64,000 nt of DNA from a bacterium (GCA_963674695.2 CAXXGI010000002.1:800001-864000); one strand, 5' to 3'; positions 495 to 29,426 are shown, counted from the stretch's first letter. Program-made: numbers and translations. Notes: a model not told the origin generated them from the sequence alone.

Positions 495-1916
495 ATGGAA
501 CTCTGGAAGAACACGGAAGAGATGAACACGGACAACAATGGCATCTATGCCATCAAAGGCGACACGCTCGACGTGGTCGACGAACATCGCTTTCGCAATG
601 GGATGGACCGGTTGGCCTGGAATGCGGTCTTCAACCCCGAGGCGGGCGTGCGCGACACGGCGCGCTGGATCATCTGGGAAGGATCGCAGGCGCTCGGCTG
701 TCCCTCGGCCTCGATCAACGACCTCTATATGGCGCGCGCCAAGGATGACTGGAAGGGCATGACCGTCCCGGCGATCAATGTGCGCGGCATGACCTATGAC
801 GTCGCGCGCACGCTCTTCAAGGTGCTCGGGCGCCACAACGCCGCGGCCTGTCTCTTTGAGATCGCCAAGTCGGAGATGCTCTATACCGAACAGCGCCCCG
901 CAGAATATGTGAGCGTGATCCTCGCCGCGGCATTGCGCGAGGGATGGAAGGCGCCGGTCTTCATCCAGGGCGATCACATCCAGGCGAATGCGAAAAAATT
1001 TGCCGCCGATGCCAATGCGGAACTGAAGGGCATGAAGGACCTGATCGCCGAGGCCATCGCCGCGGGTTTCTACAATATCGACATCGATACCTCCACGCTC
1101 GTCGATCTGGACAAGCCCACGGTCGCCGAGCAGCAGCGGTTCAACTTCGAGGCGGCGGCGGAGCTCACCAAGCATATCCGCGCCTGCGAGCCCAAGGGCG
1201 TGACCGTCTCCGTCGGCGGCGAGATCGGCGAGGTGGGAACGAAGAACTCCACGCCGGAAGAACTGGCGGCGTTCGTCGAGGGGTATAACAACGCGCTCGG
1301 CAAGGATCTCGTCGGGATGAGCAAGGTCTCCGTCCAGACCGGCACGAGCCACGGCGGCGTCGTTCTGCCGGACGGTTCGATCGCCGAGGTCGCCATCGAC
1401 TTCAAGGTGATCGACGAGTTGGGCCGGATGTGTCGCGAGCAGTACGGCATCGGTGGCGTGGTGCAGCACGGCGCCTCCACGCTTCCCGAGTCGGCGTTTC
1501 ACAACTTTCCCGAGCATCAGGCCGTCGAGGTCCATCTGGCCACCGGGTTTCAGAACACCATCTTCGATTCGACCTCTTTCCCGAAGGCGTTCAAAGAGCA
1601 GATCTACGCCTGGCTCGATACGAATGCGGCCTCCGATCGCAAGCCGGATATGACGCCGGAGCAGTTCTATTACAAGGCGCGCAAGCGCGGATTCGGTCCG
1701 TTCAAGCGCGAATTCTGGTCGCTCACCGACAACACGCGCGCCACGCTCATGTCGGAGCTGGCGCGCCAGTTCGACATGCTCTTCACCCGCCTGGGTGTGG
1801 AGGGGAGTCTCGAGCTCGTCGAGCGCTTCATCAAACCGGCGCGCGTGCAGCAGTCGCGCACGGCAAGCGGGGTGACCGCCGTGATCGAACACGACGACAA
1901 CCCGAACGCCGACTGA
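495..1916 (+). CDS. fba: Class II fructose-bisphosphate aldolase (long variant)
   Basis: GAGGAG RBS; motifs VPAINVR, FIQGDH, GGEIGEVG, GTSHGG, VQHGAS. Confidence 0.85.
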   Translation: MELWKNTEEMNTDNNGIYAIKGDTLDVVDEHRFRNGMDRLAWNAVFNPEAGVRDTARWIIWEGSQALGCPSASINDLYMARAKDDWKGMTVPAINVRGMTYDVARTLFKVLGRHNAAACLFEIAKSEMLYTEQRPAEYVSVILAAALREGWKAPVFIQGDHIQANAKKFAADANAELKGMKDLIAEAIAAGFYNIDIDTSTLVDLDKPTVAEQQRFNFEAAAELTKHIRACEPKGVTVSVGGEIGEVGTKNSTPEELAAFVEGYNNALGKDLVGMSKVSVQTGTSHGGVVLPDGSIAEVAIDFKVIDELGRMCREQYGIGGVVQHGASTLPESAFHNFPEHQAVEVHLATGFQNTIFDSTSFPKAFKEQIYAWLDTNAASDRKPDMTPEQFYYKARKRGFGPFKREFWSLTDNTRATLMSELARQFDMLFTRLGVEGSLELVERFIKPARVQQSRTASGVTAVIEHDDNPNAD

Positions 1917-1946
1917 TCGCGCTCGATTGTATTGCCTTTGAAATAT

Positions 1947-1978
1947 CCGGGGCATGCCCGTATCGCGGCATGCCCCGG
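1947..1978. terminator. GC-rich hairpin after fba
   Basis: CCGGGGCATGCC ... GGCATGCCCCGG inverted repeat; no U-tract. Confidence 0.45.
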
Positions 1979-2052
1979 TCTGTATCCGAGGGCTTGCAAA
2001 TCAAGCGGTGAATGGTATAGTCCAAAAAATTTATGAATTCCCAGGAGTTATC

Positions 2053-3660
2053 GTGATTCGACGTCGTTTGTTCCTCATCTTTCTGGCGATCTTCTTTGCG
2101 GCGTGTGCGGCCAAGACCGGTCCTCAGGTGACGCGCATCGATCTGGATGCGGATGACGATCCCTATTATCAATTCCTTCGTGCCGACCTGCACGCGCTGG
2201 CCGGTGAGACGAAGAAGTCCACCGTGGAGCTTGAAAAGCTCGTCGAGCAGTATCCGGACATGGCCTTCTTTCACTATCTGTTGGCGGTCAACTATGGTCA
2301 GTCGCGTCGGGTGGCACAGGCTATCGCCGAATGTCGACGCGCCATCGAGTTGAATCCGGAATTTGTCGATGCGATCGCTTTTTTGGGCGAGCTCTATTTG
2401 GCTCAACAGCTCTTCGACGATGCCATTCGTTCCTTCACGCGTGCGATTCGTCTGGACCCCACGCGCGAGGATCTCTATCTCATGTTGGCGCGCGCTCAGA
2501 TCGGGCGCAAGGAGTACCGGCCGGCCGTGACGACCCTCAAGCGTCTGCTCGCGGTCAATCCTGATGCGGTCGTGGCTCACCTCTACATCGGGTCGATCGC
2601 CGAGCAGCATCTGAAGAATACCTCGCAGGCGCTCGCCTCCTATCGGGCCGCGCTCGCCATCGACCCGAATAACGCCGGTGCCTCCAACGCCATCGCGCAG
2701 ATTTATCTCCAGCGGAAGCAGCCCCAGAAGGCGCTGGCGACCTATCGGGAGTTGGCTCGTATCGAGCCGGACAACGTGGCGGTGCAGCTGCGCATCGCGC
2801 TCATCTACTATGAGATCAAAGACTACGATCGCGCCATCGAGGCCTTTTCGCAGATCATCGAGCGCAATCCGGAAGCGGACAAGATTCGATACTATCTGGG
2901 CATCCTCTATGAGAGCGTCGATCGAAACGAGCAGGCGCTCATCGAGCTCCAGCAGGTTCCCGCCAACTCGAGCTATTTTCAGGAGGCGCGGCTCCATATC
3001 GCGGCGCTGCTCCGAAAGAGCGGGCGCATCGATGCGGCGATCGCTTCGCTTGCCGAGGCGATCGAGGTGCGGCCGAAGACGGTTGAATTCTATGAATTCC
3101 TCGCGGCGCTTCATGAAGAACAGAAGGACTATCCTGCGGCGATTGCTGTGCTCGATCAGGGCGTGAAGGCGAACCCCACGAGCGAGCGCACCTTCTATCT
3201 GCTCGGCATTCTTCTGGAGCGGGCGCACGAGCGAGATCGCGCGCTCAAGGTGATGCATCGCGTGCTCGAACTCAATGCGCAGAACGCGGGCGCGCTCAAT
3301 TATATTGGCTACACCTATGCCGAGCGGGGCGAGCAGCTCGAGGAGGCGCAGGCCTATATCGAGCGTGCCCTCCAGGTGCGCCCGAACGATGGCTACATCA
3401 TCGACAGCCTCGCCTGGGTACGGCTGCAGCGGGGTGATGTCGATGGCGCGCTGGAACTGCTGATCAAGGCCAACGCGCTGGTGCCGAACGAGCCGACCGT
3501 GCTCTTCCATCTCGGCGAGGTCTATCGGCTCAAGGGAGAGAACGCGCGTGCCCTGGGTTCCTATCGGCGCGCGCTCAAGGCCGGTGAGAAACGCGCGGAG
3601 CAGGACGAAGAGGAACTCGGTCGCATTCGAGCGCGGATTGAGGAACTGGAACAGCGGTGA
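2053..3660 (+). CDS. TPR-repeat lipoprotein
   Basis: AGGAG RBS before GTG; lipobox FAAC; many TPRs; ALNYIGYTYAE and PNDGYIIDSLAW motifs of the TPR gene often found before lolB. Confidence 0.85.
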   Translation: MIRRRLFLIFLAIFFAACAAKTGPQVTRIDLDADDDPYYQFLRADLHALAGETKKSTVELEKLVEQYPDMAFFHYLLAVNYGQSRRVAQAIAECRRAIELNPEFVDAIAFLGELYLAQQLFDDAIRSFTRAIRLDPTREDLYLMLARAQIGRKEYRPAVTTLKRLLAVNPDAVVAHLYIGSIAEQHLKNTSQALASYRAALAIDPNNAGASNAIAQIYLQRKQPQKALATYRELARIEPDNVAVQLRIALIYYEIKDYDRAIEAFSQIIERNPEADKIRYYLGILYESVDRNEQALIELQQVPANSSYFQEARLHIAALLRKSGRIDAAIASLAEAIEVRPKTVEFYEFLAALHEEQKDYPAAIAVLDQGVKANPTSERTFYLLGILLERAHERDRALKVMHRVLELNAQNAGALNYIGYTYAERGEQLEEAQAYIERALQVRPNDGYIIDSLAWVRLQRGDVDGALELLIKANALVPNEPTVLFHLGEVYRLKGENARALGSYRRALKAGEKRAEQDEEELGRIRARIEELEQR

Positions 3661-12201: not shown

Positions 12202-13605
12202 ATGGGTATTACGATCGTCCAAAAGAGTGATCTCACGAAGAAGCGGCCGCATGCGGTCAAGGCGCTCATTCTCTCCGGCGGGGCGGTGACCGGCGGTTCG
12301 TTCAAGGCCGGTGGCATCAAGGCGTTCAACGACTATCTCTCCGGATTTACGGTGAACGACTTCGATTGTTTCGTCGGCATCAGTTCCGGTAGCCTGCTCG
12401 TGACGCCCCTGGTGGGCGGCATCTCGCCCGAATCGGTCCTCAAGAGTCTCGATGGAACGAGCCGGCATTTTTCACCGCTGAGCGCGTGGCACTACTATCG
12501 TCCGAACGTCTCGGAACTCATCTCGCGGCCGATCTCCTTCATGATGCAGGCGGCCACCTGGTTGCCCGGAAGGGTGGCCGCGATCGTCGGTCAATCGGCG
12601 CGCTGGCCGGGGGGATTCATCGGTGCCATCCTCGATTTTGTGCGTCATCCGACGGATGCCTCCTATGAAGAGCTGATGGCGCCGCTGACGACGCTCATTC
12701 GAGGCGGTGATTTCCCGTCGCTGATGGGGCTTCTGCCTTCGGGCCTCTTCGATAACCGTCCCATCGAGCGCTATATTCGCACCAACATCGAGCGCAACGG
12801 GTTGACCAACGATTTTGTCGAGACCGAACGCCTCACGGGAAAACGCCTCTACATTTCGGCGATGCGCCTCGATGGCGCCAGCCGCGTCGTCTTCGGCCCG
12901 GACGAGGAGACCGATCTCTCGATCTCGGAGGCCATTCAGGCCTCCACCGCGATGCCGGGTTTTTATCGCCCGGCGACCATTCGCGGCGTCGATTACGTCG
13001 ATGGCGGCGTGCGCGAGACGGCGAACATCGATGTCGCCATCGACAAGGGGGCCGAGCTCATCGTCTGCTACAATCCCTTTCGTCCCTACGATTCCCAGGA
13101 GTTCGTCAGGGGGATGCAGCGCAGCAATCGCCGGCTCGCTTCGAGCGGCGTGCTGGCGGTGCTCAATCAGATCTTCCGCGCCTTCTTTCACTCGCGACTG
13201 ACCGTCGCCTTGGATCATTTTCGAGAGAGCGATCGTTTCCACGGCGACATCATCCTCATCGAGCCGCGCGCGGACGATCTCGACTTCTTTGCCCTCAACC
13301 CATTGGCGCTGGCCAACCGCGTTGAAGCGGCGCGCCTGGGGTTCGTCTCCGTGCGCAACTCCATCGAGGAACGCTTCGACGAGATGGCCGAAATCCTCGC
13401 CGCCTATGGTATCACCATGAGTCGCTCGGGAGTGGATGCTGAATATCAGTGTATCGCGGAACCGGATGCGACCGAGCAGGATGTGCAGTTCCTTCTGGAA
13501 GGGCGCAGCCGTCTTCCGGCGAAGAAGGCGGCCAAACGGACGAGACGGGGTCGTTCGAAGACGAAGAAGAAGACAAAGACAACGAGGAAGAAGAGCACGC
13601 GATGA
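12202..13605 (+). CDS. Patatin-like phospholipase
   Basis: LSGGAVTGG oxyanion loop, GISSG nucleophile motif, YVDGG; Lys/Arg-rich tail. Confidence 0.9.
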   Translation: MGITIVQKSDLTKKRPHAVKALILSGGAVTGGSFKAGGIKAFNDYLSGFTVNDFDCFVGISSGSLLVTPLVGGISPESVLKSLDGTSRHFSPLSAWHYYRPNVSELISRPISFMMQAATWLPGRVAAIVGQSARWPGGFIGAILDFVRHPTDASYEELMAPLTTLIRGGDFPSLMGLLPSGLFDNRPIERYIRTNIERNGLTNDFVETERLTGKRLYISAMRLDGASRVVFGPDEETDLSISEAIQASTAMPGFYRPATIRGVDYVDGGVRETANIDVAIDKGAELIVCYNPFRPYDSQEFVRGMQRSNRRLASSGVLAVLNQIFRAFFHSRLTVALDHFRESDRFHGDIILIEPRADDLDFFALNPLALANRVEAARLGFVSVRNSIEERFDEMAEILAAYGITMSRSGVDAEYQCIAEPDATEQDVQFLLEGRSRLPAKKAAKRTRRGRSKTKKKTKTTRKKSTR

Positions 13606-15050
13606 AATCTCGGCAACTCGACATCTTTGGAGCGCCTCCTGTACAGAAGGATTCCGCGTCCAAGCCGAAGCCAAAGTCCAAGGCCAAGACAAAAGCAGAG
13701 CCGAAGAAACGCCGGGCCTCGTCGCGCTCGCGTACGGCCAAGACCGCGCCGATGATCGTGGATGCGTATAATGCAGCCAGTCAGGCCAGCCAGGCCAGTC
13801 AGGCCAGTCAGGCCAGTCAGGCCAGTCAGGCCAGTCAGGCGAGTGCGGAGGCGGAGAAGGGGCCTCGTATCTATTCGATCGCCGAGATCACCGATTCGAT
13901 CAAGGGGCTCATCGAGCGGAACTACACCGATGTCTGGGCCTGTGGTGAAGTGACCGACTTTCGCAACCGGACCGGCCGGCACTTTTACTTCGCGCTCAAG
14001 GACGACAAGGCTAAGATTCGCGCCATCATCTTCGGCGCGGGGCAGCGGCGATTGCCCTTCGAGTTGACCGATGGTCTGGAACTCATCTGTCATGGGCGCC
14101 TCAACGTCTATCCGCTCGGCGGCAGCTATTCGCTGGTGATCGATCACTGCGAGCCCAAGGGGATCGGCGCGCTGCAGCTCGCGTTCGAACAGCTCAAAAA
14201 GAAACTCGAGGCCGAAGGCCTCTTCGCGCGTGAGCGCAAACGCCCGTTGCCGTTTCTGCCGCGACGCATCGGCGTGATCACCTCGCCGACCGGTGCGGCT
14301 GTGCGCGACATCATTCAGGTTCTCACGCGCCGCTTCCCCGGCATCGAGGTGCTCATCGATCCGGTGCGCGTGCAGGGAGAGGGATCCGCACCCGAGATCG
14401 CCGCGGCCATCGATCGCATGGGCGCACGCACCGATCTCGATTGCCTCATCGTCGGGCGCGGCGGCGGATCCATCGAGGACCTCTGGGCCTTCAATGAAGA
14501 GATTGTGGCGCGCGCCATCGTGGCATCAAACGTGCCGGTGATCTCGGCGGTTGGGCATGAGATCGATTTCACCATCGCGGATTTTGTGGCGGATGTGCGG
14601 GCGGCCACGCCCTCGGCTGCGGCCGAGATCGCGGTGCCGGTGCGCAGCGAGTTGATGCAGATGCTCGCGGATCGCCGACGGCAGTTGGGCTTGGCCCTGC
14701 GCGGGGGCCTGGAGCGTCGGGTCGATGCCGTCGCGCGTCTCTTCCATCGCCTCGGTGACCCGAGTCGGCGCCTTCCCGATCTGATGCAGCGCATCGATGC
14801 CCTCTCCCGCAGCCTTCGGTTCGGCATGGAGGTGGGTGTTGAGAAGCGCGCGCAGCGGTTTCAGGCGTTGGTGGCCAACCTAGGGCACCTCTCGCCACTC
14901 GGGATTTTGGCGAAGGGATATGCCGTTGTGGAGGATGAGCGCGGGCACACCGTCCGGGCGGCGCGCGGGCTCAAGGTGGATCAGGAGCTGGCCATACGCC
15001 TGCATAAGGGGGCTGTGCGTGCCCGCGTCCGTAAAATCGTTGACGGATGA
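13602..15050 (+). CDS. xseA: Exodeoxyribonuclease VII large subunit with N-terminal extension
   Basis: HFYFALKD, IGVITSPTGAA, GRGGGSIEDLWAFNEE, SAVGHEID, ATPSAAAE; ATGA overlap with patatin. Confidence 0.95.
   Translation: MKSRQLDIFGAPPVQKDSASKPKPKSKAKTKAEPKKRRASSRSRTAKTAPMIVDAYNAASQASQASQASQASQASQASQASAEAEKGPRIYSIAEITDSIKGLIERNYTDVWACGEVTDFRNRTGRHFYFALKDDKAKIRAIIFGAGQRRLPFELTDGLELICHGRLNVYPLGGSYSLVIDHCEPKGIGALQLAFEQLKKKLEAEGLFARERKRPLPFLPRRIGVITSPTGAAVRDIIQVLTRRFPGIEVLIDPVRVQGEGSAPEIAAAIDRMGARTDLDCLIVGRGGGSIEDLWAFNEEIVARAIVASNVPVISAVGHEIDFTIADFVADVRAATPSAAAEIAVPVRSELMQMLADRRRQLGLALRGGLERRVDAVARLFHRLGDPSRRLPDLMQRIDALSRSLRFGMEVGVEKRAQRFQALVANLGHLSPLGILAKGYAVVEDERGHTVRAARGLKVDQELAIRLHKGAVRARVRKIVDG
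13776..13838 (+). repeat. In-frame 9-bp VNTR (GCCAGTCAG)x7 encoding (ASQ)7
   Basis: Directly visible in DNA and protein. Confidence 0.95.
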
Positions 15051-15094
15051 GGGGGTGGTGCAGTAAGGGTCGTATAATGATAACGGAGGGGGCG

Positions 15095-15328
15095 ATGACG
15101 GAAAAACGCAGCTTTGAAAAGGCGATGACCGAACTCGAGGGGATCGTGCGGCAGCTCGAATCGAACGACCTGACGCTCGACGATTCCCTCAAGGCCTTCG
15201 AAAAGGGAGTGACGCTCACGCGCGAGTGTGAAACGTATCTCACCGAGGCGAAGGGCAAGGTCGAAAAACTCGTGCGCGACGCGGATGGCGTGGAAAAGAC
15301 CGAGGCGTTCGAACCGCGCGAAGCGTGA
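15095..15328 (+). CDS. xseB: Exodeoxyribonuclease VII small subunit
   Basis: SFEKAMTELEGIVRQLE ... FEKGV; GGAGGG RBS. Confidence 0.95.
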   Translation: MTEKRSFEKAMTELEGIVRQLESNDLTLDDSLKAFEKGVTLTRECETYLTEAKGKVEKLVRDADGVEKTEAFEPREA

Positions 15329-15441
15329 ACGGTGAACGGTGAACGGTGAACGGTGAACGGTGAACGGTGAACACTGCAGTGTAACACGATTTTGCTTACG
15401 GTTTACGGTTCACCGTTTACGGTTTACGGTTCACAAGTCAC
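15325..15441. repeat. Heptamer tandem repeat (GTGAACG)x~7 with an inverted degenerate tract
   Basis: Left tract 15325-15372, right tract (GTTYACG) about 15395-15441. Confidence 0.9.
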
Positions 15442-15450
15442 GGAAAAATC

Positions 15451-16332
15451 ATGAATCTCAAAACATATCTGGCAGAACGCAAGGGGTGGGTCGAGGCGGA
15501 GCTCAAGCGCTCGATCGATGATCCGTCCATTCCGCAGCAGCTGGCGAAAGCGATGCGCTACAGTCTGGAGGCGGGCGGCAAGCGCTTGCGCCCGGTGCTG
15601 GCGTTTGCCGCGGCCGAGGCGGTGGGGAGCGATGCGCGTCGGGCCATGCCCGCGGCCGTCGCCCTCGAGATGATCCACACCTTCTCGCTCATCCACGATG
15701 ATCTCCCGGCCATGGACGACGACTCGCTGCGCCGGGGAAAACCCACCAACCACAAGGTCTTCGGTGAAGCCACAGCGATTCTCGCCGGCGATGCGCTCCT
15801 GGCCGAGGCCTTCTCGGCCCTGGCGCACGCGGCGGTCGATGTTTCCCCTGTGCAGCTCATCGAGGTCATCGCCGATATCGCCGATGCCACCGGCTGTCGC
15901 GGCATGACCGGTGGCCAGCAGATCGACATCGATGCGACGGGAGAGACCATCTCGCTCGAAGCGCTCGAGGGTCTGCACCGGTACAAGACCGGGGCGCTCA
16001 TTCGGGTTGCCCTCACCTCCGGCGCGAAATTGGCTGGCGCCGATGCAGAGCAGGTGGAGCGTCTTGCGCATTTTGGCGAAGCGATCGGGCTCGCCTTTCA
16101 GATCGCCGACGATGTGCTCGACATCGAGGGCGATCAATCGCTCATGGGCAAGGACATCGGAAGCGATGAGGGACAGGACAAATCCACCTATCCGTCGATC
16201 ATCGGGCTGGATGCGTCCAAACGGCGTGCAGCCGCCCTCATCGACGAGGCGGTCGAGACGATCGCTCCCTTCGGCGAGAAGGGTGAACCGCTCGGCCAGA
16301 TCGCCCGCTACATCATCGAGCGAACATCATGA
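15451..16332 (+). CDS. ispA: Farnesyl/geranylgeranyl diphosphate synthase
   Basis: GGKRLRP, IHDDLPAMDDDSLRRG, KTGALI, FQIADDVLD. Confidence 0.95.
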   Translation: MNLKTYLAERKGWVEAELKRSIDDPSIPQQLAKAMRYSLEAGGKRLRPVLAFAAAEAVGSDARRAMPAAVALEMIHTFSLIHDDLPAMDDDSLRRGKPTNHKVFGEATAILAGDALLAEAFSALAHAAVDVSPVQLIEVIADIADATGCRGMTGGQQIDIDATGETISLEALEGLHRYKTGALIRVALTSGAKLAGADAEQVERLAHFGEAIGLAFQIADDVLDIEGDQSLMGKDIGSDEGQDKSTYPSIIGLDASKRRAAALIDEAVETIAPFGEKGEPLGQIARYIIERTS

Positions 16333-16754
16333 GACATCACTGCGCTGAAATAGACGTCGCTACCAAGGATCCCGTCGAGTTTCTCGACTGCACGGAACGC
16401 GTCTGCGAGGTGGTGGCCAAAAGCGGTATTCGCAACGGATTGGCCACGGTCGCCACGCAGCACACCACGGCCGCGGTGCGCATCACTGAACGGTGCGAGC
16501 GGTTGCAACAGGATATGCGCACGTGGCTTAACGAGACGATCCCGGCGGCACCCTATCGGCACGATGAACAGACCGTCGACGATCGTCCCAATGCGCGTGG
16601 CCACCTCATGGCCATGCTCATGCCGCACGCCGAGACGATTCCGATCGTCGACGGCAAGCTCAAACTGGGGCAGTGGCAGTCGATCTTCTTCGTCGAGGTG
16701 GACGGTCCGCGCCCCGAGCGCCGTTTGTTTGTGCAGGTGATTGGTGAACGGTGA
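16329..16754 (+). CDS. yjbQ: YjbQ/UPF0047 family protein
   Basis: HTTAA, YRHD ... NARGHL, LGQWQSIFFVEVDGPR; ATGA overlap with ispA. Confidence 0.9.
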   Translation: MRHHCAEIDVATKDPVEFLDCTERVCEVVAKSGIRNGLATVATQHTTAAVRITERCERLQQDMRTWLNETIPAAPYRHDEQTVDDRPNARGHLMAMLMPHAETIPIVDGKLKLGQWQSIFFVEVDGPRPERRLFVQVIGER

Positions 16755-16779
16755 ACGGTTCACGAGTAGTGGAGGTGGT

Positions 16780-18159
16780 ATGAACACACAGGATATGCAG
16801 TCGTTCTTTGCCGATGAAGAGACGATCGATCGCGACGTCTCCGTCATCTTCACCTATTTCATCGAGACGCTTACATCCGTGAAGGAGGCGGCGGCCTCCC
16901 TCTGCCAGGAGACCTCCACGGCGCAGTGGAAGCGCCCGAACGTCGACGAGGATTTTCGCCCGCGTCATGCGGCCAAGGTGATCTCGCTCGAGCCGATCGA
17001 CGAGGGAGCCGCGTCGGTCTTTTCGAGCACCGCGGTTTTTGGCTCGCGGTTTTCGCGCGCGCGCGTGCGCATCGCACACCCGATCGAAAACTTCGGCGCA
17101 CGCCTGCCCAACCTGCTCACCGTCGCCATGGGCGAAGGCGCCTTCTTCAGCCACGGCATCACGTCGATCAAACTCATCGACATCGAGTTTCCGGATAGCT
17201 TCTTGGCAGCCTTCCAGGGACCGCAGTTCGGGACCGCAGGCCTGCGCCGGATCATCGATGTCTTCGATCGCCCGCTCTTCTTCGGCGTGGTCAAACCCAA
17301 CGTTGGGCTCGATCCCGCAGGCTTTGCGGAGCTTGCACGCGAGGCGTGGGTCGGCGGGCTCGACGTCGCCAAGGATGATGAGATGCTCGCCGATACGGCG
17401 TATTCTCCCTTTGCCCAGCGCATGCAGCTCGTGGGGCAAGCGCGGCAGGAAGCTGAGCAAATCACCGGACGGCCGAAGATTTTTATCGCCAATATCACCG
17501 ATGAAGTCGATCGCATCATCGAGCTGCATGACATCGCGGTCGAAAATGGAGTCAATGCGGTCATGCTCAACGTCATGGCCGTGGGGCTCTCCGCAGTGCG
17601 TATGCTGCGCAAACGGTCGCAGGTGCCGATCATCGCTCACTTCGATTGCATTGCGCCCATGTCGCGGCATCCCTATTTCGGCGTCTCCACGACGGTGCTG
17701 ACGAAACTTCAGCGCCTGGCCGGTTGCGATGCGATCATCATGCCGGGGTTTGGCGAGCGAATGATGACCTCCGAGGAGGAGGTGTTGGCCAACGTGCAGG
17801 AATGCGTTGCGCCCATGGGGTCGATCGCATCCGTCCTGCCGGTTCCGGGCGGAAGCGATTGGGCGGGGACGTTGCCGCAGGTCTATGAACGCTTGCGCAC
17901 GATCGACTTTGCGCTCGTTCCGGGGCGAGGCGTCTTCGGCCATCCGCAGGGCCCGCGCGCCGGGGCGGAGAGCCTTGTCCAGTCGTGGGAGGCCACCGTC
18001 GCGCGCATCGATCTGGCCGAGTATGCCGAGCAGGCGCCGCAGCTGCGTGCCGCGATCGAGGCCTTTAGCGCAGCAGGCGGACAGGACGATACGACCGATG
18101 GAGAGGCGCTCATACATGGGTATACGGGGGCGGTACTCTCGTCGGTGATGCGCCATTGA
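16780..18159 (+). CDS. RuBisCO-like protein, form IV (Chlorobium/Photo-clade-like)
   Basis: GGAGGT RBS; ETSTAQWKR, GVVKPNVGL, GGLDVAKDDEMLAD, MPGFGERM, PVPGGSD, PGRGVFGHP. Confidence 0.92.
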   Translation: MNTQDMQSFFADEETIDRDVSVIFTYFIETLTSVKEAAASLCQETSTAQWKRPNVDEDFRPRHAAKVISLEPIDEGAASVFSSTAVFGSRFSRARVRIAHPIENFGARLPNLLTVAMGEGAFFSHGITSIKLIDIEFPDSFLAAFQGPQFGTAGLRRIIDVFDRPLFFGVVKPNVGLDPAGFAELAREAWVGGLDVAKDDEMLADTAYSPFAQRMQLVGQARQEAEQITGRPKIFIANITDEVDRIIELHDIAVENGVNAVMLNVMAVGLSAVRMLRKRSQVPIIAHFDCIAPMSRHPYFGVSTTVLTKLQRLAGCDAIIMPGFGERMMTSEEEVLANVQECVAPMGSIASVLPVPGGSDWAGTLPQVYERLRTIDFALVPGRGVFGHPQGPRAGAESLVQSWEATVARIDLAEYAEQAPQLRAAIEAFSAAGGQDDTTDGEALIHGYTGAVLSSVMRH

Positions 18160-18397: not shown

Positions 18398-19285
18398 ATG
18401 AACGCGGCGCCTGTGCGAGCGATGCTCGTCCTAATTCTGCTCGTCATTCCATCGATGGTCTTCGCCAAAATTCCGCCGAAGATCGAGAAGGTCGTCTTCT
18501 CGCAGTTCGTGCCGGCGCTGTCGAATCCGGGGATCATCTCCGCCTATACCGATCCGGATCCGGCGAAGATGCGGACCTATGTCGTGATCGAGCGTGGCGG
18601 CATTCCGGCCGAGCGCGCGACGTTCTTTATCTCCTGGAGTGACTACGACTATCGCGGTGCGGTCATCAATCTTGCGAAGAACGATCGGATCACGACGCGT
18701 CGCGGTGGGGTCTACACCTATCTCCAGAAGGGGGATGTCATGGCCGTGACCGGCGTGCGCGTCTTTGGGTCGACGGTCTACGTGAAACTCCTTTCCGCAG
18801 ACGTTTATCGCCCCGAAGCGCGGGAGAAGGATAAACGCTTTGCTCGGGTGTCGGTGGAGGTCGGGTTCAAATTTCCCAAAGAAGTGTTTAAAACGGATGA
18901 TGCCGATACGGTGATCAAGACGATGCTCGAATGGTTCACGCCTTTCTCCTCTCGCGATGAGGCCTTTGCTTATGCGGAAACCATCGGCGGCAATACCGCA
19001 GAGATAGCGGGCCAGGAGTGGGAGCAGCTGAAGGCCGAGGAGCGCGCGGCGCGGGAGGCCAGGCGCAAGCGCAAGGCTTCGACTGCCGTCGGCGATGAAT
19101 CGCCGGCAGATGCCGCCGCAGCGGAGCATGTCGAGCAGGAGGGACAGCGCAAGCAGGTCAAAAAACTCGATGAAAAGATCGAAGCGCTTCAGCGCCAGAT
19201 GGAGGAAAACGCCGCGGAGATGGAACGGCTCAAACAGGAGATGAAGGCGAATGCGCAGGCCGAGGATGCGTCGCCGAAAAAGTGA
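18398..19285 (+). CDS. Hypothetical secreted protein with C-terminal coiled coil
   Basis: GAGGAG RBS, signal peptide ending VFA, charged heptad tail. Confidence 0.75.
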   Translation: MNAAPVRAMLVLILLVIPSMVFAKIPPKIEKVVFSQFVPALSNPGIISAYTDPDPAKMRTYVVIERGGIPAERATFFISWSDYDYRGAVINLAKNDRITTRRGGVYTYLQKGDVMAVTGVRVFGSTVYVKLLSADVYRPEAREKDKRFARVSVEVGFKFPKEVFKTDDADTVIKTMLEWFTPFSSRDEAFAYAETIGGNTAEIAGQEWEQLKAEERAAREARRKRKASTAVGDESPADAAAAEHVEQEGQRKQVKKLDEKIEALQRQMEENAAEMERLKQEMKANAQAEDASPKK

Positions 19286-26989: not shown

Positions 26990-28444
26990 ATGGATCCATT
27001 GACGATAGGTGTGATGATTTGTGTCGCCCTTTTTGCTGCGAGTTGCACCGGGAAACCTTCGGAGAAGGTGCCGGTCGATGGCGATGAGGATCTGCCGATC
27101 GGCGGCGATGAAGATCTCGATGATGATGGCGAAGCAGTCGATGAAGTCGCTGATGGTCCGGATCCGGAAGAAGAGGTGGAGTCGGAACGCACGCGCCCCG
27201 ATGGCTTCGTCCGTCTGCCCGATCCTCGCGATCGCGATGCGGTCTGTCGGAATGTGGTGGACATCGATCTGACCGGAGATCGCCTCGCCTTCGTCTGCGG
27301 CTATCCGACCAACCGCGTCGGGACCTACGATGTGCGCACGTTCGAGGAGGGGGAGGGTGATCCCGAGGCGGTTTCGGTGAACTTCGCTGGTGCATTCGCT
27401 GGTCATGTCGATAGTCTCGAAGGTGGCCTCGAGGCCGTGCAGCTCATCGAGTATGGCGCTGACTATCTGATTCCATTCGCTAACAAAACGGAGAATGAAG
27501 AGGAAATTTTCAGCGGCTTTGCAACCGTCACCGGCGATGGCCAGTTGGTGCCGACCGTTTCCATCGATACCGTTTCCTTCGCGAACGATGTCCCGATGGA
27601 GATGGACGTTCATCATATCCGTTCGGCGGTCGTCTATGACAATCGTCTTTGGGTTGCCGCAACCGATCGCGAGACGGATCACGGTATCGTCTATTCCTAC
27701 AGCTTTCTCATGAACGGTGCGATCAATCCGCGCAGCGCGCGCATGCCCATTCCGACGACGGGGATCTTTCCGACGAGCCTGACGATGATCGATGAGGATG
27801 CCGGCCTGGTCGCGGTGCTCAACCTCGCCGGGGAATACCCCCATGGGACCATGGGCCTGAATCCCACGAAGCTCGATCTGCTCGATCTCAATGCGACGGA
27901 CCCGGCTTCGGCGCTGGTGGAATCGGTCGATTTACGCGTGGTGCCCATGATGCCCTCTCCGGAGCTCGCCTTCGATGCCGAACACATGCAGGCGGCGATC
28001 GCGTTCGCCGGGATGGATCCGGGAATTCTCATCGTCGATCTGCACGCGGGACGCCGTGCGATTCACAATGTCATCCACATGAATGATTGTGGGCTGGAAT
28101 CTGAGGTGAAGGCGCTGGCCGTTCGAGACAATAGGGTCTGTGCCGCGCTCGAGGGGGGAAAACTCCTCTGTTTTGACCATGCCGATGTTCCGACACTTAG
28201 GGGGACGTTTCCTGCGCGCCTCATCGATGCGCAGATGCCCGTCGGGGCGATCGCCCTCGGTCGGAACGACTATCTCTACGCGGTTGTCGACGACGCCCAT
28301 ATCGAGGCGATCGATCTCAATGCGGTGGAGGACGAGGCGCTCACCTGCGGAACGGTGATCGTCGAAAAGCCGGAGGTCGATGGCGATGAGGATAACGATG
28401 CCATCGACGTCGATCCGGATTACGAACATATCTCAAAGCTGTGA
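26990..28444 (+). CDS. Hypothetical acidic lipoprotein (probable beta-propeller)
   Basis: Lipobox AASC; repeated short beta-strand blades; acidic termini. Confidence 0.7.
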   Translation: MDPLTIGVMICVALFAASCTGKPSEKVPVDGDEDLPIGGDEDLDDDGEAVDEVADGPDPEEEVESERTRPDGFVRLPDPRDRDAVCRNVVDIDLTGDRLAFVCGYPTNRVGTYDVRTFEEGEGDPEAVSVNFAGAFAGHVDSLEGGLEAVQLIEYGADYLIPFANKTENEEEIFSGFATVTGDGQLVPTVSIDTVSFANDVPMEMDVHHIRSAVVYDNRLWVAATDRETDHGIVYSYSFLMNGAINPRSARMPIPTTGIFPTSLTMIDEDAGLVAVLNLAGEYPHGTMGLNPTKLDLLDLNATDPASALVESVDLRVVPMMPSPELAFDAEHMQAAIAFAGMDPGILIVDLHAGRRAIHNVIHMNDCGLESEVKALAVRDNRVCAALEGGKLLCFDHADVPTLRGTFPARLIDAQMPVGAIALGRNDYLYAVVDDAHIEAIDLNAVEDEALTCGTVIVEKPEVDGDEDNDAIDVDPDYEHISKL

Positions 28445-28466
28445 TGTCTGCAAAATGTGGAATCGG

Positions 28467-28498
28467 AAGGGTCGGCCGTCGCCGGCCCTTTTCTTTTG
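28467..28498 (+). terminator. Intrinsic terminator
   Basis: AAGGGTCGG ... CCGGCCCTTTTCTTTT. Confidence 0.75.
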
Positions 28499-28556
28499 CG
28501 TTGGATGCGGAAAGCCGATTGACGCCGCGGTCGTGGATGCGCTAGCCATGCGGGCC

Positions 28557-29426
28557 ATGAACGCCATCACCATTTCTGCCCCCGCCAAGGTCAACACCGT
28601 CCTGCGCGTCGTTGGGCGCCGGCCGAACGGCTATCACGACCTCGAGATGGTCATGGTGCCGCTGTCCGTCGCCGACGAGATCAGTTTGACTAAACGCGAT
28701 TCGGGGATCGAGCTTGTCTGCGATGGGGGTTCCGACGAGGGAATGCAGGCCGAGCGCAACCTCGCCTGGCGTGCCGCGCGTGCCCTTCAGGAGGCCGCGG
28801 GGATCTCCTCCGGGGTGCGCATCGAGTTGACCAAACGCGTTCCCATCGCCGCGGGGTTGGGCGGCGGCTCGAGCGATGCCGCGGCGGTCCTGCGCGGGCT
28901 CAATGAGTTGTGGGAGCTGGGATGGGAGCCACAGCGGCTGGCCGAAATTGGCGTACATCTGGGGGCGGACGTGCCCTTCTTCTGTTTCGGGCGTTCGGCC
29001 TGGGTCGGGGGGATCGGCGATCGCATCGACCCCCTCGAAAAATTTCCAAACCTCTCGTTATTATTGGTGAATCCGAATATCTCCGTGGCCACCCCCTGGG
29101 TCTATGGCCAGTGGGATGAACTGCAGAACCAACGCAAAAACAAGGGGTTGACTGGTCATGAGGCCGGTGCTAGGGTCCGCCCGCTTTTTCAGGGTGTTTC
29201 GGATGTGATCGAATCCCTGCACAACGATCTCGAAGCCGTCACGATTCCGGCTTATCCGATCATTGCCGATATCAAGCGCGCGCTGCAGGAGAACGGGGCA
29301 GCGGGAACGCTCATGTCCGGGAGTGGCCCGACCGTCTTCGGCCTCTTTCGCGATCGCGACCAGCGCGACCGGGCGGCACAGCGCATCGATGGCGATGCGT
29401 GGCGAGTGATCCCAGCCGACGTGTAA
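28557..29426 (+). CDS. ispE: 4-diphosphocytidyl-2-C-methyl-D-erythritol kinase
   Basis: APAKVN, GYHDL, PIAAGLGGGSSDAA, GADVPFF, LMSGSGPTVFG. Confidence 0.97.
   Translation: MNAITISAPAKVNTVLRVVGRRPNGYHDLEMVMVPLSVADEISLTKRDSGIELVCDGGSDEGMQAERNLAWRAARALQEAAGISSGVRIELTKRVPIAAGLGGGSSDAAAVLRGLNELWELGWEPQRLAEIGVHLGADVPFFCFGRSAWVGGIGDRIDPLEKFPNLSLLLVNPNISVATPWVYGQWDELQNQRKNKGLTGHEAGARVRPLFQGVSDVIESLHNDLEAVTIPAYPIIADIKRALQENGAAGTLMSGSGPTVFGLFRDRDQRDRAAQRIDGDAWRVIPADV

Follow-up and report, generated by a model that had tools for sequence, protein, structure and literature searches.

Introduction

The operon xseB-ispA-dxs is widespread in bacteria, and in it ispA, the gene for farnesyl diphosphate (FPP) synthase, is followed by dxs. 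A RuBisCO-like protein (RLP) is tied to isoprenoid synthesis in Rhodospirillum rubrum, where the methylthioadenosine (MTA)-isoprenoid shunt runs through MtnP, MtnA, an RLP of the DeepYkr clade (methylthioribulose-1-phosphate 1,3-isomerase) and a cupin methylsulfurylase to 1-deoxyxylulose-5-phosphate (DXP). RLPs of the Photo clade have been known since about 2001, with solved structures, and an ill-defined role in sulfur metabolism and stress has been described for the RLP of Chlorobaculum (Chlorobium) tepidum. Here, we describe the gene of a predicted Photo-clade RLP that lies, together with yjbQ, behind ispA in a stretch of bacterial DNA of 64,000 nucleotides (the window; C2:800001-864000 of the source genome, GCA_963674695.2, CAXXGI010000002.1), positions in which are counted from its first letter. 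The original prediction from this sequence was that RLP and YjbQ occupy the usual place of dxs and may form an entry into isoprenoid synthesis that is independent of DXS.

According to the accessible parts of a 2023 survey of the methylerythritol phosphate (MEP) pathway, 181 of about 4,400 species lack Dxs only, and the genes of the R. rubrum shunt explain at most 5% of Dxs-less species, the mechanism being unknown in 95%; the Dxs-less species are listed in its Supplementary Table S2 and Figure S3 (PMC10663253). Our literature search found no work naming both "RuBisCO-like protein" and "YjbQ" and none in which the function of a Photo-clade RLP had been solved.

Results

The RLP gene belongs to an ispA operon conserved across a bacterial class

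The RLP gene is co-transcriptionally arranged with the FPP synthase gene. As first read from the sequence, the genes for a patatin-like phospholipase, xseA, xseB, ispA, yjbQ and RLP all lie on the + strand; the ispA stop and the yjbQ start share an ATGA, and a spacer of 25 nt separates yjbQ from RLP, ahead of whose start lies a GGAGG-like site. What follows ispA is yjbQ and RLP and not dxs, and ispE was found where it had been placed, at about 28.5 kb and outside the operon (Table 1).

Conservation was surveyed in a class sample of 93 genomes (the source genome, G000, and G046-G137) and an order sample of 22 genomes, the members of the order carrying inconsistent NCBI titles (Bdellovibrio sp., Myxococcales, Deltaproteobacteria, Pseudomonadota bacterium). 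RLP is present in 22/22 genomes of the order, where dxr is present in 21/22, and in 58/93 genomes of the class, a PF00016 search returning the same 58. We examined the RLP loci of 54 of these 58, the other four being fragments; one lies at a contig edge, which leaves 53 assessable loci. The ispA gene is directly upstream of RLP in 49 of them, with yjbQ in between in 40 and without it in 9 (those of family f2 and five others), and the remaining four have other contexts (L074 and L117 of family f11, L126 and the divergent L145). The linkage of ispA and RLP holds down to 43% RLP identity. Because ispA is directly upstream in 49 of the 53, the arrangement is far beyond chance, and xseA-xseB-ispA-(yjbQ)-RLP is an old operon common to the whole bacterial class. 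The synteny survey proposed with the original prediction therefore upheld the linkage, and the class-wide position of RLP behind ispA points to a role in feeding the isoprenoid pathway.

The RLP is of the Photo type and YjbQ is a distinct subfamily

The solved structures nearest to the window RLP are those of the C. tepidum RLP (1TEL/1YKW, 514-516 bits) and of Rhodopseudomonas palustris RLP2 (2QYG, 494 bits), any other solved RLP or RuBisCO giving at most 225 bits. The likeness to the C. tepidum protein that had been noted is thus borne out, and the RLP tree agrees, in that the window RLP clusters with the RLPs of Chlorobiota and Chromatiaceae. Curated models stay below their cut-offs, both those for bona fide RuBisCO (TIGR03326, 235.5 vs 497.45 bits; NF003252, 211.8 vs 438; NF010002, 135.6 vs 489) and those for MtnW/YkrW, the 2,3-diketo-5-methylthiopentyl-1-phosphate enolase (NF007095, 212.7 vs 409; TIGR03332, 186 vs 513.6). 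The best curated NCBIfam match, OiaX (3-oxo-isoapionate-4-phosphate decarboxylase), reaches 275.3 bits, yet this is far under its cut-off of 700. Since it falls below all curated RuBisCO, MtnW and OiaX cut-offs and is nearest to 1TEL/1YKW and RLP2, the protein is assigned by its sequence to the form IV, Photo-clade RLPs. We regard it as orthologous to the orphan Photo RLPs that occur in the green and the purple sulfur bacteria. The genome has no other RuBisCO-family gene (a single PF00016 match).

The translation carries the form IV hallmarks KPN, KDDE, HFD and GFGERM that had been pointed out. Alignment to 1TEL/1YKW and among 117 RLPs showed that KDDE, which holds the carbamylated lysine and the metal ligands, is kept, while KPK is replaced by KPN, HR by HF and the lysine of loop 6 by arginine. 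Residues K172, K198, D200, E201 and H287 are invariant among the 117 RLPs, and F288 is found in 48/48 ispA-linked and 31/31 phototroph RLPs; in our presumed mapping to RuBisCO numbering, F288 takes the position of the RuBisCO arginine of the second phosphate site. The RLP is predicted to retain the residues for Mg2+/carbamate-dependent enolisation and to be without those for carboxylation.

YjbQ has homologues of solved structure. Its RLP-linked orthologues, at 44-58% identity, adjoin RLP genes in several phyla and have invariant residues that include His45, His78, His92 and Asp84. They form a distinct subfamily, since the other UPF0047 genes of the class have an identity of only about 34%, those of family f2 and of RLP-less genomes one of 26-45%, over parts of the sequence. 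A predicted complex of an RLP dimer (residues 1-429) with YjbQ scored 0.00, which counts neither way. No fused forms were found of RLP (805-2295 aa) or of YjbQ (248-2000 aa), which is weak evidence.

The source genome needs DXP and lacks dxs

The source genome comprises 3.03 Mb in 3 contigs without N; marker genes put its completeness at 100% and its contamination at 0.85%. It lacks dxs: a TIGR00204 profile search gave 0 matches, the best tblastn match to five DXS proteins from the order had an E-value of 0.008, and tblastn with E. coli Dxs gave no match at E<=1e-3. The remaining MEP genes are present, with dxr (497 bits), ispG (434 bits), ispE and, by tblastn with E. coli proteins, ispD, ispF and ispH, so the pathway is incomplete for want of dxs. 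The same tblastn approach detected the DXP users pdxJ (56% identity) and thiG (58%) as well as thiH, thiC and thiE. No HMG-CoA reductase was found in the genome, and a DXP route of the YajO type was rejected, since E. coli YajO as query gave no match at E<=1e-3. Because the genome has dxr, ispD-H, pdxJ and thiG but neither dxs nor YajO nor HMG-CoA reductase, DXP is required, and the organism needs it for three pathways without a known way to make it. The genome also holds no PufL/M, PufC or type 1 IDI. The absence of PufL/M and PufC means that the host is not a type II reaction-centre phototroph, in agreement with its earlier description as apparently non-phototrophic.

A genome search for dxs, MEP and mevalonate genes and for MTA-salvage genes had also been suggested, and the salvage genes are present: MTA phosphorylase (MTAP; TIGR01694, 345 bits, cut-off 274.85) and MtnA (TIGR00512, 441.9 bits, cut-off 279). 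MtnA is found in 20/22 genomes of the order. In family f2, MtnA is present in 3/4 genomes and a class II aldolase/MtnB-type gene in 0/4, and RLP is there the sole candidate consumer among those looked for. The one class II aldolase-like gene of the source genome, considered as a possible MtnB or Ald2, matches no equivalog (MtnB, 77.7 bits vs cut-off 137), and the cluster around it is an unrelated one of a lipid or inositol-like kind. In a dxs-positive class genome (L151, G091:C15, 3721-6215), a class II aldolase-like gene that is 33% identical to it lies directly 3' of dxs on the same strand. The MTAP gene of the source genome is paired with a PfkB-family sugar kinase gene (G000:C3:800497-802452; locus L102, 3498-5453).

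A transketolase pyrimidine-binding domain occurs in a single protein of the genome, a divergent transketolase-like one of 793 aa (G000:C1:649397-651778, L093) that matches human TKT at 69 bits; neither a canonical transketolase nor a 2-oxoacid dehydrogenase E1 was seen in the genome. As a hidden DXS this protein was rejected, with close homologues in 3/5 dxs-positive genomes tested; among dxs-less genomes, homologues were not found in G079, G100 and G125, a close one occurs in G062, and G107 has a 55-bit match only. A scan of the genome for the GDG...NN thiamin-diphosphate (ThDP) motif gave 10 matches, none in a plausible ThDP enzyme, and was uninformative.

The presence of RLP does not follow the absence of dxs

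The dxs search was run at E<=1e-5 in the order and at E<=1e-100 in the class outside it, except for five genomes rechecked at E<=1e-5. High-quality genomes are those with a completeness of 90% or more and a contamination of 5% or less (n=63, all with dxr), and the co-occurrence counts treat kin genomes, which are not independent. While dxr is present in 90/93 class genomes, dxs is present in 17/93, and in 5/22 genomes of the order. The 93 class genomes divide into 10 with RLP and dxs, 48 with RLP only, 7 with dxs only and 28 with neither; for the 63 high-quality genomes the figures are 9, 34, 4 and 16, an odds ratio of 1.06. The anticorrelation of RLP and dxs expected from the original prediction is absent.

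As many as 50 of the 63 high-quality genomes have dxr without dxs. The genomes with neither RLP nor dxs span families f5, f8 (14 genomes), f15 and f17 and single genera of f6, f14, f16, f18, f19 and f23; being spread over at least ten families or genera, they indicate that loss of RLP in a dxs-less background has been tolerated repeatedly. Five of them (G079, G100, G107, G125 and G103, 96-100% complete) were rechecked, and 0/5 reach the dxs cut-off; their best matches to the dxs model are short transketolase-like proteins of 615-644 aa (130-221 bits, with 221 bits in G079), which occur beside a true dxs in other genomes as well. Within family f1 the dxs proteins share 63-65% identity, and with their counterparts in f3 and f4 they share 47-52%, a pattern that fits vertical descent with repeated loss.

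Nor did dxs adjoin ispA in any of the 6 dxs-positive class genomes examined. Since dxs lies elsewhere in 6/6 of these relatives, there was no ispA slot for RLP to take over, and the idea that RLP and YjbQ sit in the usual dxs slot does not hold in this class. Six genomes (G054, G055, G057, G066, G071 and G093) carry dxs together with ispA-yjbQ-RLP. The 16 high-quality genomes without dxs and without a RuBisCO-family gene make life without DXS a trait of the class that is independent of RLP. These data show that RLP is not what lets the class live without DXS, and the class-wide source of DXP is a more general puzzle than the role of RLP.

Isoprenoid and MTA phosphorylase genes adjoin yjbQ-RLP in other phyla

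The 80 loci with the closest RLPs were drawn from 185,579 species genomes (genomes G001-G045 were reached through loci, and their completeness is not given). The yjbQ gene is directly upstream of RLP in 48 loci, purple sulfur bacteria included, of which 13 also have ispA and 8 then idi; ispA without yjbQ occurs in 1 locus, neither gene in 25, and 6 lie at a contig edge. In a Chromatiaceae subclade the gene for type 1 isopentenyl diphosphate isomerase (idi; NF002995, 174 bits, cut-off 127) overlaps the RLP stop and is followed by lipA, an idi gene lying 3' of RLP in 8/9 loci of the subclade by each of two counts. A contig of a Planctomycetota metagenome-assembled genome (MAG), L073, has the order xseA-yjbQ-RLP-xseB-ispA-dxs, and because its xseA is 52% identical to that of the window, transfer from the window's class may have occurred.

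MTA phosphorylase adjoins yjbQ-RLP in 2 of the 118 loci scanned (TIGR01694, 303 and 280 bits). In L078, a Planctomycetia contig, its gene is upstream on the same strand; in L080 it is convergent, tail to tail with RLP, with a PfkB kinase gene ahead of it (MTAP-PfkB pair at 1411-3176). The PfkB kinases of the source genome and of L080 are not detectably similar at E<=1e-8. Most phototroph loci have no isoprenoid gene near RLP. Further neighbours of yjbQ-RLP show no common theme; examples are a match to the type III sulfide:quinone reductase model in Ectothiorhodospira (210 bits, far under the cut-off of 525) and a cardiolipin synthase-like gene in Halochromatium (275.5 bits, cut-off 290). Photo-type RLPs also occur on three contigs that were binned as archaeal (L022, L046 and L080; Methanoregula, Micrarchaeota), in two cases together with yjbQ; genes for FtsZ, a Rad50-like ATPase and enolase lie on L046 as well, and transfer and mis-binning are both possible for the three contigs.

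A quick IQ-TREE tree, rooted on a long-branch outgroup and hence with an unsure root, placed the phototroph RLPs (Chromatiaceae, Ectothiorhodospiraceae, Chlorobiota) in a supported group of 35 rows (SH-aLRT 99) and the RLPs without yjbQ and ispA upstream in another of 25 rows (SH-aLRT 96), whose hosts are Desulfobacterota, Chloroflexota and Spirochaetota. All 25 members of this sister clade have PAGSQ where the yjbQ- or ispA-linked RLPs have PGGSD (86/86). The sister-clade RLPs (loci L015, L018, L019, L023, L043, L055-L058, L062, L063, L068, L070, L075 and L081) are without yjbQ and have the extended motif PAGSQW; their neighbours are genes of the UPF0261, MBL-fold lactonase, class II aldolase-like or sugar isomerase-like kinds, or a SorC regulator with two xylose-isomerase-like TIM barrels. 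The sister clade probably has another function, in an uncharacterised sugar-acid pathway.

Features of the locus

The genes of the locus and the models that identify them are listed in Table 1. The patatin gene is kept 5' of xseA in many class loci (tblastn synteny). The xseA reading frame is open from 13449, and the TIGR00237 match begins at residue 93; an in-frame (ASQ)n repeat at about 13770-13840 lies in the N-terminal extension ahead of the matched part. The hairpin between xseB and ispA has an RNA fold of -59.3 kcal/mol (z -6.9; 0/200 shuffles as good) and is not followed by a T-run, and no consensus terminator was found inside the six-gene block 12202-18159. Tandem runs of GGTGAAC number 14 in the whole genome, and a two-unit run also lies at the yjbQ stop (16743-16756). 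Downstream of RLP, at 18398-19285, is the gene for a predicted secreted protein of 295 aa with a Lys/Glu-rich tail, which has no Pfam or NCBIfam match and is kept downstream of RLP in most loci of the order at 38-54% identity. The sequencing runs listed as containing the stretch are three DNA runs of one study, with no RNA run among them. Outside the window, a single open frame of 12,813 codons lies at G000:C2:526726-565167.

Table 1. Genes and other features of the locus, in window positions.
Feature	Position	Strand	Evidence
Patatin-like phospholipase, first gene of the co-oriented block	12202-13605	+	PF01734, 71 bits
xseA, exodeoxyribonuclease VII large subunit	about 13599-15050	+	TIGR00237, 451 bits, cut-off 180
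xseB, exodeoxyribonuclease VII small subunit	15077-15328	+	TIGR01280, 77.5 bits, cut-off 35
Long intergenic hairpin, (GGTGAAC)6 and inverted copies, between xseB and ispA	15329-15440 (112 nt)	+	
ispA, farnesyl diphosphate synthase	15451-16332	+	NF045485, 379.5 bits, cut-off 275; PF00348, 206 bits
yjbQ (UPF0047), RLP-linked subfamily	16329-16754	+	PF01894, 123.7 bits, cut-off 27; TIGR00149, 108.9 bits, cut-off 67.75
Form IV RuBisCO-like protein (RLP), predicted Photo clade, 459 aa	16780-18159	+	PF00016, 173.1 bits; PF02788, 28.3 bits
ispE, MEP-pathway kinase, context only, outside the operon	28380-29426	+	TIGR00154, 225.3 bits, cut-off 138.7

Discussion

All functional statements made here draw on gene context and homology. 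From the gene identities, the conserved operon, the presence of MTAP and MtnA, the absence of DXS and the gene neighbourhoods we infer a substrate, a product and a role for YjbQ, and the reading that we prefer, tentatively and knowing that it may well be wrong, is that MTAP and MtnA provide 5-deoxy- or 5-methylthio-ribulose-1-phosphate, from which RLP, alone or together with YjbQ, makes DXP or one of its precursors, RLP being a salvage feeder and not a substitute for DXS. MTA phosphorylase and MtnA would turn waste nucleosides of S-adenosylmethionine (SAM), likely 5'-deoxyadenosine from radical-SAM enzymes and possibly MTA too, into a ketopentose 1-phosphate. RLP would then shift the carbonyl of its substrate, as the DeepYkr RLP of R. 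rubrum does with methylthioribulose-1-phosphate, so that 5-deoxyribulose-1-phosphate would give DXP directly and the methylthio substrate would give 1-methylthio-DXP. The product would enter the MEP pathway and FPP synthesis. YjbQ would be an accessory enzyme that could process the methylthio product or a wrong epimer and would be dispensable in some lineages. The more specific proposal, that a Photo-clade RLP helped by its linked YjbQ makes DXP directly from 5-deoxyribulose-1-phosphate derived from 5'-deoxyadenosine through MTAP and MtnA, is one that we consider doubtful.

Salvage is preferred because it accounts for both kinds of neighbour, the isoprenoid genes and MTAP. The coexistence of RLP and dxs fits as well, since a salvage route does not compete with DXS, and so does the enrichment of RLP in anoxygenic phototrophs, which depend, as we suppose, on radical-SAM enzymes. 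The available text of Miller et al. (2018, PMC5893883) describes earlier in vitro work in which conversion of methylthioribulose-1-phosphate to methylthioxylulose-5-phosphate by the Photo RLP2 of R. palustris was slow, and such an isomerisation would bring the chemistry within reach of the Photo clade. Overexpressed E. coli YjbQ, according to the parts available of Kim et al. (2010, PMC3010111), helps a by-pass that yields a phosphorylated keto acid. In the accessible parts of a 2024 paper, the fates listed for 5'-deoxyadenosine are the dihydroxyacetone phosphate (DHAP) shunt, 6-deoxy-5-ketofructose-1-phosphate and 7-deoxysedoheptulose, DXP not being among them (PMC10986504).

Several results weigh against this reading. 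Among the class genomes RLP shows no association with the absence of dxs, and 16 of the 63 high-quality genomes have dxr with neither dxs nor a RuBisCO-family gene; another source of DXP must exist in the class and may also serve the source genome. MtnA is not specific to RLP, because it is also present in 5/5 RLP-less genomes tested, and 9 of the 49 ispA-RLP loci have no yjbQ in the operon. A Planctomycetia MAG (G043, completeness not given) has yjbQ-RLP with MTAP and HMG-CoA reductase and no dxr or dxs, and because dxr is lacking there, the product of RLP cannot feed the MEP pathway in it. As far as the available text of Miller et al. (2018, PMC5893883) goes, the R. palustris Photo RLP has no in vivo role in MTA metabolism and negligible in vitro rates, the function of RLP2 awaits further work, and we found no mention of 5-deoxyribulose-1-phosphate. 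By our own estimate, SAM waste probably provides little flux when set against the whole demand for DXP, and salvage leaves the class-wide supply of DXP unexplained.

The opposite extreme, that RLP and YjbQ supply all the DXP of a DXS-less organism in place of DXS, is strongly disfavoured and has hardly any chance of being right, even though the source genome has no dxs, an otherwise complete MEP pathway and both PdxJ and ThiG, RLP is present in 22/22 genomes of the order vs 5/22 for dxs, and RLP holds the post-ispA position that dxs holds in E. coli. What decides against it is that 28 of the 93 class genomes (16 of the 63 of high quality) keep dxr with neither dxs nor a RuBisCO-family gene, that these are spread over at least ten families or genera and that the rechecked ones stay below the dxs cut-off; RLP and dxs coexist in 10 genomes, share one operon in L073, and dxs is not beside ispA in its 6 examined carriers. 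Of the original claim of a DXS-independent entry, the absence of dxs and the isoprenoid linkage stand, and the entry itself is countered by the 16 genomes. RLP, with or without YjbQ, might instead act on a sugar phosphate of the isoprenoid pathway without any DXP from SAM waste, repairing or epimerising side products of DXP or MEP such as 1-deoxyribulose-5-phosphate or a 3-keto isomer. The same links to isoprenoid genes (ispA, idi, ispA-dxs) would follow, coexistence with dxs would be expected, and RLPs do catalyse enolisation and proton transfer on 2-ketopentose phosphates; we nevertheless think repair unlikely, as the MTAP neighbourhoods and the occurrence in a genome without dxr go unexplained and no such damage product is documented in the literature that we looked at.

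It is somewhat unlikely that RLP has nothing to do with isoprenoids and is a decarboxylase or isomerase of sugar-acid phosphates, like OiaX and as in the sister clade, or has a role in sulfur metabolism or stress, the adjacency to ispA being that of an inherited operon. OiaX, at 275 bits, is the best curated model, although far under the cut-off of 700, and the 25 RLPs of the sister clade do have genes for UPF0261, MBL lactonase, class II aldolase-like and sugar isomerase-like proteins as neighbours, but this sugar-context clade has PAGSQ in 25/25 where all yjbQ- or ispA-linked RLPs have PGGSD. The lack of isoprenoid genes near most phototroph RLPs and the presence in the operon of xseA and xseB, themselves functionally unrelated to ispA, favour such a function; in other phyla, the links to idi and to MTAP take the form of arrangements of their own, which inheritance alone can hardly explain. 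A pentose-bisphosphate route has a slim chance. In it, a nucleoside phosphorylase, a PfkB kinase and an isomerase of the MtnA family would make ribulose-1,5-bisphosphate, RLP would enolise it and eliminate the C1 phosphate to give 1-deoxy-2,3-pentodiulose-5-phosphate, and a reductase would yield DXP. The beta-elimination product is a known side product of RuBisCO, and the RibB/YajO route to DXP is presumed to pass through this diketone as well. MTAP adjoins a PfkB kinase in the source genome and, beside yjbQ-RLP, in L080, but no similarity between these kinases was detected at E<=1e-8; in addition, MtnA is above the MtnA cut-off and below that for ribose-1,5-bisphosphate isomerase (233 bits vs 314), the second phosphate site is hydrophobic (F288), and there is neither a YajO homologue in the genome nor a reductase in the operon.

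The orphan Photo-clade RLPs gain a specific functional hypothesis that is testable in vitro, with a conserved partner in YjbQ and two kinds of metabolic neighbour, the isoprenoid genes and MTA/5'-deoxyadenosine phosphorylase. If the more specific proposal is true, conversion of 5-deoxyribulose-1-phosphate to DXP would add to the fates of 5'-deoxyadenosine and give the RLPs of green and purple sulfur bacteria the function that has long been sought for them, and RLP would make a real contribution to the DXP from which isoprenoids, thiamin and pyridoxal phosphate are made in a class that is mostly DXS-less. An MEP pathway without DXS in 50 of the 63 high-quality class genomes sharpens the question raised in the available text of the 2023 survey (PMC10663253), to which RLP is not the general answer. 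The DXP-forming enzyme of the class would be of interest to isoprenoid engineering and to work on antibacterial targets.

Among known systems, the Photo RLPs (C. tepidum 1TEL/1YKW, R. palustris 2QYG) resemble the window RLP in the full-length match at 494-516 bits and in catalytic and substituted residues, whereas the window host has no type II reaction-centre genes and its RLP gene is welded to xseB-ispA. The R. rubrum shunt is alike in that an RLP is tied to isoprenoid genes, MtnP and MtnA are present and a small second protein is encoded beside RLP; unlike the shunt, the window has an RLP of the Photo type, not of the DeepYkr clade, with YjbQ and not a cupin as partner. As far as the available text of PMC5893883 goes, the Photo RLP of R. 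palustris does not carry the shunt in vivo. With OiaX the window RLP shares its best curated match, but the locus is without apiose-pathway neighbours. The E. coli operon xseB-ispA-dxs(-yajO) shares the order and orientation of xseB and ispA with the window; in E. coli ispA, dxs and yajO are contiguous, whereas in the window yjbQ-RLP follows ispA and the genome has neither dxs nor YajO. The DHAP shunt for 5'-deoxyadenosine and MTA (MtnP or MtnN/K, MtnA, Ald2) has the same upstream enzymes and the same proposed substrate pool; it ends in an aldol cleavage, whereas the last step proposed for RLP would be an isomerisation to DXP.

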